Origin: Clostridiales bacterium UBA1248
GTDB lineage: Bacteria; Bacillota; Clostridia; Oscillospirales; CAG-272
Direction of reading: 5' to 3'
Assembly: GCA_002308615.1 (NCBI GenBank)
Contig: DBWC01000015.1
Location: 1 to 53,373, forward strand
Length of the DNA stretch: 53,373 nucleotides
Numbering within the stretch: the first letter of the stretch is position 1; every line of letters starts with the position of its first letter. The position numbers and the translations under genes are program-made. The notes under the pieces are model-generated. The model was not told the DNA's origin, made no database searches, and was given only the letters and a program-made list of their open reading frames with translations. Shown here one piece after another: positions 96 through 12,472 of this stretch.

Positions 96-183
96 TTTAA
101 TGAAGACGTTCGCACCACGGCGCTCACTAATGAAGCGAAGACGCCCGCGTTCCTTAATCAGCTCCGAAGGAGCGTATTCATTA
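96..183. repeat. Mosaic palindromic repeat, copy A, left part (AATGAAG blocks separated by GC-rich hairpins)
   Basis: TAATGAAG at 98-105, CTAATGAAG at 127-135 and ATTCATTA at 176-183. Hairpin GCTCC-GAA-GGAGC lies between them. Block order is homologous to 12234-12444 read in the opposite orientation. Confidence 0.6.
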
Positions 184-467
184 GCTTAGGGTAACGAGAA
201 TTATCCGAACCACGTTTTCGGACGGCATCTCGCCGCTCCTGCTTCGTTAAACCCCTTGCTGTTACGTATAGTAGCACCTGCGGGCTTTGCCTCGCAGGAA
301 CAACGATCTGTTCGTCCGAAAATCCTATAGGACTCAAACGGATGAAATTTGCAGATATTTTCGGCGCGGAGGAAGCAGGAATACGCCGGTATTCCAATGA
401 CGACAAACCGAAAAGAGCCGAAATAGCGCCGTTTGAGCGGGTTCGGATAACTCTTGTTACCCTAAGC
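184..467. other. 284-bp element bounded by 28-bp imperfect inverted repeats and containing nested helices (candidate structured ncRNA, MITE or invertible segment)
   Basis: 184-211 (GCTTAGGGTAACGAGAATTATCCGAACC) is the reverse complement of 440-467 at 26 of 28 positions. Internal pairs are 215-224/313-322 and 333-341/429-437. Hairpins lie at 277-298, 323-332 and 378-395. The only ORF here (158..475 minus) is Arg/Ser-rich and not protein-like. Confidence 0.55.
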
Positions 468-520
468 GTCTTCATTTTTCATTAGCCCGTCCCACGGGCG
501 TCTTCATTTTCGGCGCGACA
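468..520. repeat. Mosaic palindromic repeat, copy A, right part (CTTCATT blocks)
   Basis: CTTCATT at 470-476, TTCATTAG at 478-485 and CTTCATT at 502-508. Hairpin GCCCGT-CCC-ACGGGC lies between them. Confidence 0.6.
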
Positions 521-2583: not shown

Positions 2584-3879
2584 TTATTCGGGTCTCTTCT
2601 CTCCGCAGTCGGAGCAGAATTTACCGTTGTTTACCGTGCCGCATTTCGGGCAGGTCCAGGAAGCGGGAGCCTCCGGCTTCTTTTCTCCGCAGTCGGAGCA
2701 GAATTTGCCGGTATTCACGGCGCCGCATTTCGGGCAGGTCCAGGAAGCCGCGGGAGCGGGTTTCTTTTCGCCGCATTCAGGGCAGAAGTTGCCGGTCACG
2801 GTCGCGCCGCACTTCGGGCATACCCAGCTGTTGGCAGCGGGAGCCGCGGGCTGTGCCGGCTGTACGGGCTGATTCTGACCCATGGCGTAGAGATTGGAGG
2901 CGTTCATTCCGCCGGCGTTCATAGCCATACCCATGCCTATAAAGCCGTTCATCGCGCCGCCTTCGTTTGCCGCCGCGGTATTCATAGCGGAGATCTGACC
3001 GCCTATCATACGTGCCGCGCCGACGTTGGGATTGAGCGTCATGGAAGTTTCTTCCCACTCGGTTATCTTCTTTCTCTGATCCTCGGGTATGGACGGTACG
3101 CCTATGTTGAGCGAGTTGACCTCGATACCGCGTTTGCCCCACGTATCCTTGAGCTCTATGTTGAGAGCGTCACGGACTTCCGTCGTATGAGCGGGGATCT
3201 GGTCATACGATACGCCGTTTGCGGAAAGCACCGCCAGAGCGGGCTGCAGAGCCTGGATAAGCTCAGCCTTGAGCATTCCGTCAAGCTGTTCGCACTTGAA
3301 TTCGTCCGCTACGTTGCCCATGAAGCTGGTGTAGAGGAGCAGCGGGTCTACGACGTTGTATGAATATACGCCGTTGATCCTCAAGTCTACGGAGAGCTTG
3401 AATCCGAGCTGTTCGTTGATAACGACCTTGAACGGTACGGGATTGGCTGTTCCGAACTTCTTGTTCGGTATCTCCTTCGTGTTGAAGTAGTAAACGCGCT
3501 GATCCTTACCGGTGTCTCCGCCGTATGTAAAACGTCTGCCTATAGTCTTGAACGTCTCGATTATGGACGTGCCGAGCTTACCTGCGAAAAGGCTCGGCTC
3601 AGTGCTGTTGTCCCAGGTGAACTGACCGGGTTCGGCGCAGAATTCAACGACCTTGCCCTGTTCAACGATGATCATGCACTGACCGTCGGCAACGGCGATG
3701 CCGGAACCGTTGGAAATTATGTTGTCGTTGCCTTTGGTGTTGCTGGAACGGCTTGTGATCCTCTTTTCACCTTTGACCATAAGAGTATCTTCCGGGATGG
3801 ATTCACAGTAGAAGAATTCTTTCCACTGGTCCGCAAGAGTGCCGCCTAACGCACCGGTAATAGCTTTAATAAGTCCCAT
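2584..3879 (-). CDS. SPFH/Band-7 domain protein (YdjI / virion-core-like, COG4260-type) with three C-terminal zinc ribbons
   Basis: 431-aa ORF. The N-terminus MGLIKAITGALGGTLADQWKEFF and the body resemble SPFH-family proteins. A Gly/Met/Ala-rich linker precedes three copies of SW.CPKCG....G.FC..CGEKKP. Confidence 0.75.
   Translation of the reverse strand: MGLIKAITGALGGTLADQWKEFFYCESIPEDTLMVKGEKRITSRSSNTKGNDNIISNGSGIAVADGQCMIIVEQGKVVEFCAEPGQFTWDNSTEPSLFAGKLGTSIIETFKTIGRRFTYGGDTGKDQRVYYFNTKEIPNKKFGTANPVPFKVVINEQLGFKLSVDLRINGVYSYNVVDPLLLYTSFMGNVADEFKCEQLDGMLKAELIQALQPALAVLSANGVSYDQIPAHTTEVRDALNIELKDTWGKRGIEVNSLNIGVPSIPEDQRKKITEWEETSMTLNPNVGAARMIGGQISAMNTAAANEGGAMNGFIGMGMAMNAGGMNASNLYAMGQNQPVQPAQPAAPAANSWVCPKCGATVTGNFCPECGEKKPAPAASWTCPKCGAVNTGKFCSDCGEKKPEAPASWTCPKCGTVNNGKFCSDCGEKRPE
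2587..2826 (-). repeat. In-frame tandem repeat encoding three CxxC-x10-CxxC zinc-ribbon modules (28+28+24 aa)
   Basis: SWVCPKCGATVTGNFCPECGEKKPAPAA / SWTCPKCGAVNTGKFCSDCGEKKPEAPA / SWTCPKCGTVNNGKFCSDCGEKRPE. The roughly 84-bp DNA periodicity is visible by eye. Confidence 0.9.
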
Positions 3880-5184: not shown

Positions 5185-6333
5185 TCAAAAGTCTTTCAAA
5201 CTCGCAGCTTTGAATTTATCAATTTCAGCGCAAATATTGGTGTCCTCCGTATCAGGATCCGTGTGTTCAGGTTCGGTAACCGGTTCTCCGGAATTGATCT
5301 CCGCGACCTTCGTTATATACATTACGCCGTCAATAAATGTGTCTGTACCTTCCCCGCTTGAATACTTCACCTCTGCCAGCACCCAAAGCTCAGCGCCGTA
5401 TGGTATGGCACGCATTATAATCTCATAATAGCCGTTTCCCGGATCCGGGAAAATGGATTTTATTTGATTTCTCAGACTTTTCACGTCAAGTTCAATGTCT
5501 TCAAACGGTTCCATTTTTGCATCGCAGGTTCTGGAAACTATTTTAAGTACATCACCGCTTTTACTGATCGTCACCGAAATATCGTCAATACGATATATCC
5601 CGTTGAATTTCTTTCTGAAAACTATACTGTATTTGTTTTCATACGTATTTACGACAACGTCACAATCGTCGGTTTCCGTACCCGCATATTCATGCAAAAC
5701 TTCTTTTGCATATTCAATTATATCATCTTCATCCGACTGTTCATTTACCGGAGGCTCAAATCCTTCCGCTCTTTCGCCCGAAAGATTTTCATACGTTGCT
5801 AATTTGCCTGATTCCTCGCAAAACGTAAACAAACCGTCATCCGACAGATACATATCATATCCTTCATCATAAGCGTCAAACGAAAATGACTCAAGATATT
5901 CAGCGATATGATTTGTGCCGAATATATTCACGGTTCTGTCATCCATATTGTTTTTGGTCTTTCTGTTATCAGACGAGAGAAATTTTTTTCCTACGTAAGG
6001 TTTAGCTGTGCCGCCACCTGTACCGCCCTGTCCCACGGCGTACAAATAAATCTTGTTTGCCGCGGACTCTGCTCCGCCGCTTAACTCTCTGAACAGCGCG
6101 ATCACATCTTTATTGTCAACGTTGCCGTCCTCATTGAAATCGTACGCCGATTCGTCTTCTGCTTTTTTCCCACCCGAAACGTATCTGAATAAAACAACAA
6201 CGTCTTTATTATCGGTTTTTCCGTCGCCGTTTATATCTCCTTTTATAATCTCGTTGTTTTGTGCCAATACAAGCGTACCGATCACGGCAGCCGTCATAAC
6301 TATCGCCAAGACTATTGAAATAATTCTTTTCAT
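5185..6333 (-). CDS. Secreted protein with an N-terminal type-I dockerin and an uncharacterised C-terminal domain
   Basis: A signal peptide (MKRIISIVLAIVMTAAVIGTLVLA) is followed by two EF-hand-like dockerin segments. These are DINGDGKTDNKDVVVLFRYVSGG and DFNEDGNVDNKDVIALFRELSGG. Confidence 0.75.
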   Translation of the reverse strand: MKRIISIVLAIVMTAAVIGTLVLAQNNEIIKGDINGDGKTDNKDVVVLFRYVSGGKKAEDESAYDFNEDGNVDNKDVIALFRELSGGAESAANKIYLYAVGQGGTGGGTAKPYVGKKFLSSDNRKTKNNMDDRTVNIFGTNHIAEYLESFSFDAYDEGYDMYLSDDGLFTFCEESGKLATYENLSGERAEGFEPPVNEQSDEDDIIEYAKEVLHEYAGTETDDCDVVVNTYENKYSIVFRKKFNGIYRIDDISVTISKSGDVLKIVSRTCDAKMEPFEDIELDVKSLRNQIKSIFPDPGNGYYEIIMRAIPYGAELWVLAEVKYSSGEGTDTFIDGVMYITKVAEINSGEPVTEPEHTDPDTEDTNICAEIDKFKAASLKDF

Positions 6334-6877: not shown

Positions 6878-9022
6878 TCAGTATATTTTCACGTCCGCGC
6901 CGTTTACGTATCTGAACAGCACGGCAACGTCTTTATTGTTCGGCTCTCCGTCGCCGTTCACGTCCACCGCGTAAACGTTTATTTCGACTTTCACGTTATT
7001 CAGATATCTGAACAGCAAAACGACGTCCTTATTATCGACGTATCCGTCGTCGTTCATATCTCCGGGGCTGTACAGCACAGGCTCTTTCGTCTTTTTCACG
7101 TCTATCATTCCGGTGCCAAGCGCGTTAAGCTCTGACTCATAGTCGTCGTCGATCTTGACTATGACGCGCAGGACGTGGTCTCCCTCGCCGAGCTTTTTGG
7201 TGTTGATCCTCGCTTCAAACCTGTAGCCTATGCCGCCGTTCGTATAAGGATCGAGCGCGGGATCGCGCGTCAGCGTTATGCTGCCGTCGAACACGGGCAT
7301 GCATCTGTTGAACGCGTAACCGATCTTTATCACCTCGCAGCTCACGCCGAACCAGCCTTTGATATACCACTCCGTTTCGGTCTCGTCCGTGAAGAAGCAG
7401 AGTTCTCTGCCTTCCGCGACGTCGCCCTCTCTGTCTATATATGAATTCGTGACCTTGCCTAAAACGGCGGGCGTTACATCGACCTCAAGCGGTTTTTCCT
7501 TGCCGTCGGACGTCATAAGTCCTTTGATAACGGTCCTCTCCTTTGCGTTCATCTCCGCCATTATCATAACGGAATGCTTGCCCTCGGTCAGCGCCTCGTC
7601 TTTGATCTCCGCTTTGAATCTGACCGCGTTTGTTCCCGCGTAATTGGTGACCGCGGCGTCGCCCGGCACGGTCATATCGAGCGGTATGATGCTCACGCCC
7701 TCCCATACCGTTTCGCCGCCGTCGATGCTGTAGCCTAAGCGGTTTATCTCGTAATTGCCGCCGAGCCATCCGAGCACGGACAGCGTCTGCTTGCGGTACG
7801 TCTGCGAATCTATGTAGGAATTTATTATTTTTGCGGCGTCCGTTCTGACGAGAACGTCCGGATGCGCGTTATATTCCGGCATTCCCTCGTAAACGGGTAT
7901 GAGGAACGTGTACGGCAGATCGACCATACCGTTTTCCTTGAATGAATTGTACGACGACGCAGCCATACCGATCGATCCGGTGATGCTCTGCATATACTGG
8001 CCCCAGAAGTTGCGCTTGGATCTCGGATCGACGTTGAATTTCTGTAAGTAAGGCGTGTTCTGGTAGTCGTTTACGTATTTGTTCGTCGCCGCGTACGCGC
8101 CGCCGTATATGGATTTCCAGTGCTTGTTCCAGGAAACGTCTCCGCCCCATTCCGCTTTTTTGTCGGGCGTTCCCTTTTTCGCCTCGTCTATGCCGTTTTT
8201 GTATATCTGGAAATATCCCGTGCCTGCCGAACCGATGTTGAAATAATTGTAATAGCCGTTATAGGATTTGAGCTGAGCCTCCGTATATCCGCTCGTCGGC
8301 GCGTTTATTATATGCCCGGCTGAATCCTTGCCCGTCATTTTATTTGAGTAATAATACCAGAGCTTATCTCCCACGTTGCCGTTTATCAGCGGACTCGTTC
8401 CCGCGGAGCCCTGCTCCGCGCGCACTCTTGACGCGAGATATACCGGGCTTACGCCGAGCTCCTTGCCCACGTCGTAAAAATACTGAGCGTAAGTCGTGTT
8501 TGAATACTTGTCGTCCAGCTTTTTGTTTTCCATGAACGTGCCTTTGAGCACGGCTTCTACCGCGGATAAAGTTATGCTGTCAGACCATTTAAGATCGTAG
8601 AACTGGAATATCTGCTCGTCAGTCATGAAATTGCGCGGATCCATAAAGTATTTCACCGTTTCGACCGACGCGCGCCACCAGCCCGAATCGTACTGCTGAT
8701 TTGACGGATGACGCCAGTTTTTATAAGTATCGCTGTTATATACGAGACTTCTCTTGGGATTTTCGTCCGTTTCCATATATATGACGTAATCCCAGGTGTA
8801 TTTGCCTCCGCTCATCTTCGTCACGTTGAGCGGCTCGAAGCTCCAGCTCGGGTGTCTTTCGTGAAGCGCCGCCAGCTTTTCGGCGTAATCCTCCGGAAAG
8901 CCCTTTGCTGTAAGCTCCTCCTTATACGTTTTGTCGTAAGCGGAAAAGGACACGGCGCTCACCGCCGACAGCGCCATCATCGCGGCAAGTATGAAGGAAA
9001 CGAGCTTTACTGATCTTTTCAT
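6878..9022 (-). CDS. Secreted GH73-like (N-acetylglucosaminidase-type) peptidoglycan hydrolase-like protein with Ig-like repeats and a C-terminal dockerin
   Basis: Signal peptide present. The region GVSPVYLASRVRAEQGSAGTS ... TPYLQKFNV resembles the glucosaminidase domain. The C-terminus carries dockerin segments DMNDDGYVDNKDVVLLFRYL and DVNGDGEPNNKDVAVLFRYV. Confidence 0.6.
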   Translation of the reverse strand: MKRSVKLVSFILAAMMALSAVSAVSFSAYDKTYKEELTAKGFPEDYAEKLAALHERHPSWSFEPLNVTKMSGGKYTWDYVIYMETDENPKRSLVYNSDTYKNWRHPSNQQYDSGWWRASVETVKYFMDPRNFMTDEQIFQFYDLKWSDSITLSAVEAVLKGTFMENKKLDDKYSNTTYAQYFYDVGKELGVSPVYLASRVRAEQGSAGTSPLINGNVGDKLWYYYSNKMTGKDSAGHIINAPTSGYTEAQLKSYNGYYNYFNIGSAGTGYFQIYKNGIDEAKKGTPDKKAEWGGDVSWNKHWKSIYGGAYAATNKYVNDYQNTPYLQKFNVDPRSKRNFWGQYMQSITGSIGMAASSYNSFKENGMVDLPYTFLIPVYEGMPEYNAHPDVLVRTDAAKIINSYIDSQTYRKQTLSVLGWLGGNYEINRLGYSIDGGETVWEGVSIIPLDMTVPGDAAVTNYAGTNAVRFKAEIKDEALTEGKHSVMIMAEMNAKERTVIKGLMTSDGKEKPLEVDVTPAVLGKVTNSYIDREGDVAEGRELCFFTDETETEWYIKGWFGVSCEVIKIGYAFNRCMPVFDGSITLTRDPALDPYTNGGIGYRFEARINTKKLGEGDHVLRVIVKIDDDYESELNALGTGMIDVKKTKEPVLYSPGDMNDDGYVDNKDVVLLFRYLNNVKVEINVYAVDVNGDGEPNNKDVAVLFRYVNGADVKIY

Positions 9023-9976: not shown

Positions 9977-10090
9977 CTTTTTCTCCGGAATATAGTTTTC
10001 GACATATAATAAGATTATCCGACGTTACCATTATACAACATTTTCAGTCTTTTGTAAATACATTATTCAAAAAAATGCACACCATTTACC

Positions 10091-10119
10091 TTGATTTTAC
10101 AAAGTAAATTATGTAAAAT
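10091..10119 (+). promoter_or_regulatory. Sigma-A-type promoter for the VanY-like gene
   Basis: TTGATT at 10091-10096, a 17-nt spacer, then TAAAAT at 10114-10119. Confidence 0.45.
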
Positions 10120-10171
10120 CTTTACAGACAGCAAAATTACGCGCATTCAGCGGAAAAGAAAGGCAGTTATA

Positions 10172-11803: not shown

Positions 11804-11815
11804 TCCCTGTTCATT

Positions 11816-11893
11816 GGGATATAGCCAAGTCGGTTAAGGCACAAGACTTTGACTCTTGCACTGCGCTGGTTCGAATCCAGCTATCCCAGCCAG
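11816..11893 (+). tRNA. tRNA-Gln (anticodon UUG), with encoded CCA
   Basis: Acceptor stem is TGGGATA/TATCCCA. Anticodon stem is CAAGA/TCTTG with loop CTTTGAC. The T-arm is GCTGG-TTCGAAT-CCAGC, the discriminator is G, and CCA follows. The sequence resembles Firmicutes tRNA-Gln. Confidence 0.9.
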
Positions 11894-11894
11894 A

Positions 11895-11922
11895 AAACCC
11901 GATGCGAAAGCATCGGGTTTTC
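11895..11922 (+). terminator. Rho-independent terminator after tRNA-Gln
   Basis: AAAACCCGATGC-GAAA-GCATCGGGTTTT. Confidence 0.8.
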
Positions 11923-11928
11923 AACTAA

Positions 11929-12092
11929 ATCCGTCCTTACGGACGGGTTAAATCCACTGCGTGGATGAAATCGCTGCGCGATGAAATCCGCACTGACGTG
12001 CGGGATAAAGAGGACGGATTTAATTTCATCTGTCGCCATAGCGACAGATTTCATCCGGGCTTTGCCCGGATTTCACCGCGGCACCGCCGCGA
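11929..12092. repeat. Array of seven short near-perfect hairpins, mostly ATC...GAT, joined by GAA linkers in the left half and TTC linkers in the right half
   Basis: Hairpins lie at 11929-11950, 11953-11967, 11971-11983, 11987-12007, 12029-12050, 12054-12072 and 12078-12092. ATGAAAT recurs on the left and its complement ATTTCAT on the right. Confidence 0.75.
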
Positions 12093-12203: not shown

Positions 12204-12233
12204 AAAATCCCCGTCAATTGACGGGGATTTTTC
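12204..12233. terminator. Perfect 30-nt palindrome; bidirectional terminator-like hairpin
   Basis: AAAAATCCCCGTCAATTGACGGGGATTTTT, with an A-run and a T-run flanking a 10-bp stem. Confidence 0.6.
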
Positions 12234-12444
12234 AATGAAGTCGCCCTGCCCTCGGGGTCCCCGAAACGAGCTTGCCGAGTTTTGGGGAACGGGCCGACGG
12301 GGCTAATGAAGACGCTTCGCTAATGAAGAAATGAAGTCGCTCACTGCGTTCGCTAATTAAGGAACAGGGGGCGACTTCGCTTCATTAGGCGGCAAAGCCG
12401 CCGTCTTCATTAGGGCGTTAGCCCGTCTTCATTTCTTCATTAAC
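12234..12444. repeat. Mosaic palindromic repeat, copy B (forward CTAATGAAG blocks, then reverse CTTCATTAG blocks, separated by GC-rich hairpins)
   Basis: Forward blocks lie at 12234-12241, 12304-12312, 12321-12329, 12330-12337 and 12354-12362 (CTAATTAAG). Reverse blocks lie at 12381-12389, 12406-12414, 12428-12434 and 12436-12444. It is homologous to 96-183 plus 468-520 in inverted orientation. Confidence 0.7.
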
Positions 12445-12472
12445 TCCCATTCTCTCATTCCTCACATTATTT

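Follow-up and report, generated by a model that had tools for sequence, protein, structure and literature searches.

The window, by which we mean the whole 53,373-nt stretch of DNA analysed here, is contig DBWC01000015.1 of Clostridiales bacterium UBA1248. Near its left end an element bounded by long inverted repeats lies in the intergenic region between two convergent genes, a plus-strand gene that ends near position 47, ahead of a hairpin at 49-82, and a minus-strand gene (577-1701) that encodes a WbsX-type glycosyltransferase according to Pfam. The element is surrounded by a cluster of short units with the plan TTCATTA-[small hairpin]-GTCTTCATT. The motif GTCTTCATT occurs seven times in the window, where 0.45 occurrences are expected, and the units form two clusters, at 90-515 and at 12220-12450. 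In both of them AATGAAGAC-type copies are located on the left and GTCTTCATT-type copies on the right, so that either cluster could adopt a large, branched palindromic fold. A tRNA gene (65 bits), with a match to the Rfam Gut-1 RNA motif directly after it, lies at 11815-11992 of the window; the Gut-1 match (RF01706) scores 57.5 bits against a gathering score of 50 and opens a run of small hairpins with ATGAAAT/ATTTCAT spacers that extends to about 12100. The clusters of hairpin units look like a host-specific intergenic repeat, in style like the Gut-1 region.

An inverted-repeat search recovered the arms that a sequence-only reading had described at 184-211 and 440-467, complementary at 26 of 28 positions. 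With as many as three mismatches tolerated, the arm pattern occurred in the window only at these two sites, and none of 100 shuffles contained any match. The inverted-repeat unit therefore stands, while the extent of 184-467 assigned to it proved to be 5 nt too wide on each side. GCT and AGC, the three outermost bases of the arms, lie outside TAGGG and vary among 80 copies, and thus belong to the target flank and not to the element. The unit proper (189-462) measures 274 bp, has a G+C content of about 50% and is flanked by TA on both sides. Its 23-bp terminal inverted repeats, GGGTAAC...TTATCCGAACC, contain two mismatches and are kept in all copies, including those of a second subfamily (subfamily B) described below. 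The features are listed in Table 1.

Table 1. Positions of the element, its parts and its target sequences in the window.
Feature	Position	Strand	Evidence or remark
Left target flank, TTCATTA + GCT	177-186		Left half of a TTCATTA-[hairpin]-GTCTTCATT unit; GCT varies among copies
TA, left copy of the target-site duplication	187-188		Single TA at orthologous empty sites (L029 versus L002 and L032; L032 versus L029 and L001)
Left terminal inverted repeat GGGTAACGAGAATTATCCGAACC	189-211	+	Identical in 41 left ends from public MAGs; conserved in subfamily B
Left arm: closing helix 215-224/313-322, long imperfect stem 224-312, apical hairpin 258-278	215-322		Folding and compensatory changes between subfamilies
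Central linker, palindrome TCCTATAGGA, poorly conserved	323-332		About 80% paired across copies; non-palindromic replacement in subfamily B
Right arm: closing helix 333-341/429-437, inner stem 359-413, apical hairpin 378-395 (GGAATAC-GCCG-GTATTCC)	333-437		Conserved on both strands
Right terminal inverted repeat (reverse complement GGGTAACAAGAGTTATCCGAACC)	440-462	-	Identical in 39 right ends from public MAGs
TA, right copy of the target-site duplication	463-464		Comparison of filled and empty sites
Right target flank, AGC + GTCTTCATT	465-476		Right half of the hairpin-repeat unit
Paralogous unfilled hairpin-repeat unit TTCATTA-GCGAAGC-GTCTTCATT	12304-12329	-	Local alignment with the excised locus

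If the element is excised and one TA is left behind, the locus reads TTCATTA-GCTTAAGC-GTCTTCATT. Local alignment of this excised locus with the reverse complement of 12250-12335 gave about 80% identity over about 80 nt, and at the aligned position the second cluster carries, in reverse complement, only the 7-nt hairpin unit. The alignment thus confirms the short paralogous site without the element that had been noticed from the sequence alone. No orthologous empty site was obtained for the window locus itself, since the sole contig with the neighbouring WbsX protein stops 44 nt past the gene.

When the arm pattern was used to scan bacterial genomes, one for each species, it yielded 72 loci in seven rumen MAG species labelled Ruminococcus or Clostridia. 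Nearly all of these loci are 50-140 nt away from a contig end and point outward, a position that would be a product of the assembler where a repeat longer than the k-mer breaks the graph. Every end runs on into sequence that is 95-100% identical to the window element, and where 220-278 nt are available the match to the window copy is full-length, showing that the repeat breaking the contigs is the unit of about 278 bp itself. The element thereby explains broken assemblies: in one MAG, dozens of contig ends stop inside the repeat. A relaxed scan of metagenome contigs added 39 loci. Altogether, 123 element ends with 116 distinct 25-nt flanks were found in public genomes and metagenomes (rumen Clostridia/Ruminococcus MAGs), and the 42 ends in MAG RGIG3597 alone correspond to at least about 20 copies. 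The flanks reveal a symmetric target preference, with C at position -2 in 46 of 80 flanks, T at -1 in 39 of 80 and G or C at -3, so that the preferred insertion context is S-C-T-TA-A-G-S. A blastn search of phage and plasmid collections gave no match to the element, and the scan of viral contigs contained no copy; five viral matches to the relaxed pattern, all in the same conserved phage gene, had no partner repeat and were taken as chance. Two further loci were rejected as full-length elements because they are solo terminal repeats with interiors unlike the element, L071 962-989 next to a tRNA-like sequence (by eye) and L082 1305-1328 beside a ParB-HTH gene; both are probably what is left of old or truncated insertions.

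Three pairs of orthologous filled and empty sites were found between RGIG3597 and RUG14256, in both directions, and two of the three show a single clean TA at the empty site. The first pair reads CTCCT-TA-TGGTATC when empty and GTCCT-TA[element]TA-CGGTATC when filled, the second CCG-TA-TTATTAT and ACG-TA[element]TA-TTTTATC, respectively, and the third is a diverged site whose length is consistent with a 2-bp duplication. As empty sites carry a single TA and filled sites two, the unit comprises 189-462 and TA is duplicated; in sequence, a duplicated TA is indistinguishable from an element with A...T ends inserted within T|A. Locus L062, the flank of an insertion in RGIG3597, matches window positions 10023-10122 at 87%, and the window site (about 10023-10165) has no element; this is probably a further filled and empty pair, with its junction in diverged sequence. 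In the complete copy L007 4246-4523 the right-hand TA is mutated to TT. This copy has the flank context GCT...AGC in common with the window copy at a different locus, which fits the GCT-TA-AGC target preference.

The copies are far more uniform than the DNA into which they are inserted. Over the terminal 85 nt, identity to the window copy is 99.9-100% in three MAG species, each of which contributed 12-42 ends; 25 of these nucleotides are biased by the exact-match pattern used for the search, and the other 60 are near-identical as well. Orthologous flanking DNA, compared among those MAGs or with the window, shows only 75-87% identity. Near-identical copies in such diverged flanks argue for recent movement in each lineage, and the element has probably crossed species boundaries, or its uniformity is maintained by a shared active source. 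Its presence is a marker of recent DNA exchange or of recent transposon activity among the species of uncultured rumen Clostridia.

The open reading frame at 158-475 (105 amino acids) gave no Pfam match, and among the copies open frames vary in strand and frame and are interrupted. A coding function was rejected on these grounds, in agreement with the initial view that the frame is not protein-like. The element is multi-copy, occupies many sites flanked by a TA duplication, is polymorphic for presence and absence, is near-identical across species and has no conserved open reading frame. Each feature of bacterial MITEs that was tested is present, except an identified partner. We consider it very likely that the 284-bp inverted-repeat element is a copy of a non-autonomous, non-coding DNA transposon (MITE), and the suggestion of a mobile module such as a MITE, made from a single locus, has held up well against the 116 flanks, the filled and empty TA sites, the near-identical copies in several species and the agreement of the excised window site with its paralog. 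The element is of an ordinary kind and no new kind of system; what sets it apart is a two-armed fold kept by compensating mutations.

The enzyme family, mobilisation in trans and whatever role the two-arm fold may have are inferences. The transposase would be supplied from another locus and is most likely of the IS630/Tc1-mariner type; it would bind both terminal repeats, excise or copy the unit and insert it at a TA in the context S-C-T-TA-A-G-S, with duplication of the TA upon insertion. In the window, the insertion would have taken place at the TA within a small intergenic hairpin repeat between the convergent genes. The two-arm hairpin may assist the short element in bringing both termini into proximity, or it may serve as a stable RNA structure upon read-through from neighbouring genes.

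Candidates for an autonomous partner were searched in all loci (about 710 kb) and the window with a fuzzy terminal repeat (up to eight mismatches) paired at 150-3000 bp, and none was found. Neither did a search for generic inverted repeats 800-2500 bp apart reveal an autonomous element in the fetched loci, nor did the metagenome scan contain a match that combined the terminal repeat with an interior other than that of the MITE. As no autonomous partner was found, it is the TA duplication by itself that points to IS630/Tc1-mariner. MAGs commonly lose multi-copy IS, so that the missing partner is weak evidence. Two subfamily-B copies, L094 297-572 and 4355-4630, lie in the same orientation 3.8 kb apart around genes for an HNH endonuclease, a LytR-family protein and a sortase; Pfam identified no transposase among the genes between them. 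The pair could behave as a composite unit, and there is no sign of movement.

A modest chance remains with a non-IS630 transposase as the mobilising enzyme, for instance one from an IS5-family group that makes 2-4-bp duplications, as some groups of that family do. The GG at the termini directly after TA and the duplication of only 2 bp would be compatible with such an enzyme, as would the failure to find an IS630-type partner. However, the classical hallmark of IS630/Tc1-mariner transposition is a TA-specific duplication together with a palindromic target context, and RUP, a TA-flanked bacterial MITE with a proposed partner, points to IS630 as well (PMC2229807).

The whole 284-nt segment folds with -123.2 kcal/mol on the plus strand and -132.3 kcal/mol on the minus strand (z-scores against dinucleotide shuffles -8.8 and -9.9, respectively). 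Folding of the interior without the terminal repeats was better than that of shuffles in all six copies tested, with z-scores from -3 to -8. The nested pairs listed in the sequence-only reading are all present as exact inverted repeats, including 215-224/313-322, 333-341/429-437 and 237-245/372-380. The metagenome scan also revealed subfamily B, whose members share about 70% identity with the window copy and are 276-279 bp long (L114 716-994, L113 1675-1951 and the two L094 copies; partial copies in L097 and L076), the two subfamilies differing by indels of 1-2 nt. Each subfamily-B member has the same plan, a terminal stem followed by two arms, each of which consists of a 9-10-bp closing helix and a 7-8-bp top hairpin.

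Compensatory changes were counted in alignments of both subfamilies. RNAalifold predicted 45 pairs from an alignment of 19 sequences, 20 of them with changes on both sides. In an independent count, 97.7% of the cells were paired, compared with 27-47% when the partners were slid by one to three columns, and the 20 compensated pairs compare with 1-5 in the slid controls; none of 500 shuffles reached any of the observed pairing measures. These counts draw on only about five independent lineages, and the structure scored was derived from the same alignment. The hairpin at 378-395 is paired in 100% of cases, with four of its seven pairs compensated, and the closing helices 215-224/313-322 and 333-341/429-437 were recovered on the minus-strand alignment, the first with compensated pairs. 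The multi-helix interior perceived in the single copy is therefore real and conserved through compensatory changes. Two of the proposed pairings did not survive the comparison: the crossing pair 237-245/372-380, taken as a possible pseudoknot, is broken without compensation in subfamily B, and the palindrome at 323-332 is poorly conserved as a helix. Two further ideas were rejected. TTTCGG/CCGAAA, present in five copies in the subfamily of the window element, is not conserved as a subterminal binding repeat in subfamily B, and an origin as a head-to-head dimer is at odds with left and right halves that are not significantly alike beyond the ends (z 0.8-2.6).

When the same 13 sequences were folded on both strands, the plus strand gave 61 pairs with -54.9 kcal/mol and the minus strand 67 pairs with -58.4 kcal/mol, and 24 pairs were compensated on each. 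These near-equal consensus folds, with equal numbers of compensated pairs, indicate that the fold has no strand preference. Copies are likewise placed without orientation bias towards neighbouring genes, the left end pointing toward the gene in 26 cases and the right end in 25, with 31 left and 32 right ends pointing away, at median distances of 43-88 nt from gene ends.

These observations bear on a different view of the element, that of a mobile structured RNA module in which the two-arm fold would be a stabiliser, a processing site, a regulatory RNA or a small RNA gene and the inverted-repeat ends the vehicle. We regard it as rather unlikely. The fold strength of the six interiors, the pairing of 97.7% of the cells and the 24 base pairs retained through two-sided changes between the subfamilies would all suit it, read-through of the WbsX gene would transcribe the window element, and RNA structures of MITEs that act on neighbouring mRNAs are already known (PMC2229807). 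However, the equally good consensus fold on both strands and the unbiased orientation of the copies speak against it, including the RNA gene that had been suggested from the sequence, and no promoter-like or terminator-like site was found inside the element. Rfam 15 gave no match over the element at gathering thresholds, in line with the first inspection, which recognised no tmRNA, RNase P, SRP, 6S or riboswitch signature, and at E<=10 over positions 1-700 only chance-level snoRNA and miRNA matches (E 1.5-10) appeared. The small number of lineages behind the covariation counts against it as well. Moreover, template-switch correction in short palindromes can generate compensation without selection.

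The compensatory conservation of the internal helices is not required by a simple cut-and-paste model and is to that extent a point against the plain MITE reading. The consensus of the family reflects the copies that propagate, and the conservation of the two arms would thus favour a role in propagation or persistence over a locus-specific function for the host. It appears doubtful, yet is conceivable, that the two-arm fold has been selected as a single-stranded structure and that the element is a mobile vehicle for a functional RNA or ssDNA module, which it would need in order to propagate or which the host would exploit in either orientation. If this were true, gut Clostridia would harbour a distinct class of structured MITE, marked by the 274-bp length and the covarying arms. 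The conserved two-arm fold makes the element a tractable system in which to ask whether the secondary structure of MITEs is under selection for transposition or because it influences the transcripts next to it.

Inverted repeats of 23-28 bp around a short non-coding segment are also what would be expected of an invertible DNA segment acting as a phase-variable switch, a possibility raised in the original description. It is very improbable. The 116 different flanks, the TA duplication and the filled and empty polymorphism oppose it, and at five loci, each represented in two to three independent assemblies, the same end was always joined to the same flank. The lack of an internal promoter is a further point against a switch, as is the lack of an adjoining recombinase gene: none was present among the scannable neighbouring genes (the plus-strand gene ending near 47 runs off the window), with the WbsX glycosyltransferase gene as neighbour on the other side. 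An IS200/IS605-derived palindrome-associated element, which would have subterminal hairpins, no terminal repeats and no duplication, was rejected too, since the element has repeats that extend to its outermost bases and is flanked by a duplicated TA. That the element is merely an outsized member of the host's TTCATTA-[hairpin]-GTCTTCATT repeats, as its position exactly in the hairpin slot of such a unit might suggest, is refuted by the flank survey, in which the motif was found in none of 115 other flanks and the flanks were unrelated.

As a MITE, the element can be compared with several known families. Bacterial MITEs typically have terminal inverted repeats, terminal TA and target-site duplications, and RUP (repeat unit of pneumococcus), the usual bacterial example of a MITE linked to a relative of IS630, is presumed to move to TA sites by the action of IS630-Spn1 (PMC2229807). 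RUP resembles the element in being non-coding, in its terminal inverted repeats and insertion at TA, in its many, mostly intergenic copies and in its presumed mobilisation in trans (PMC2229807). It differs, in a comparison by description and not by sequence, in its length of 107 bp, its host Streptococcus and its repeats that match a known IS, whereas the element described here has 274 bp, is found in rumen Clostridia, contains a two-arm interior and has no partner that could be found. The Correia elements (NEMIS/CREE) of Neisseria are likewise TA-flanked MITEs, with inverted repeats of about 26 bp, and the structures formed by their transcripts influence the mRNAs next to them (PMC2229807). 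They are proteobacterial, 100-155 bp long and form one long hairpin with an IHF site and promoter parts, in contrast to the two-arm fold without a promoter-like site found here. Correia transcripts are processed by RNase III.

The predicted structure of the CIR repeats of Caulobacter and Brucella, two long inverted-repeat arms and a linker, is phylogenetically conserved and similar to the plan of the element (PMC2229807). CIR repeats contain a conserved GANTC methylation motif, and it is unclear how they move, whereas the element has classic inverted-repeat ends and a TA duplication. IS630/Tc1-mariner elements share the TA target duplication and the terminal inverted repeats with it but encode a DDE transposase and are 1-1.4 kb long, while the element lacks a conserved open reading frame. 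Classic bacterial MITEs are shorter than 200 bp and A+T-rich (PMC2229807) and form a single hairpin, which contrasts with its 274 bp, its G+C content and its two arms. Reports of MITEs in rumen Ruminococcus-like bacteria were looked for in the literature, and none was found.

Two further observations were made in the window. Dockerin type I domains are present in two proteins, encoded at 5185-6333 and 6878-9022, which fits a Ruminococcus-like host that bears a cellulosome or amylosome. The protein encoded at 2584-3879 contains an SPFH/Band-7 domain and C-terminal zinc ribbons, and its sub-threshold matches to the Cas12f1-like TNB zinc ribbon look like generic zinc-ribbon similarity.
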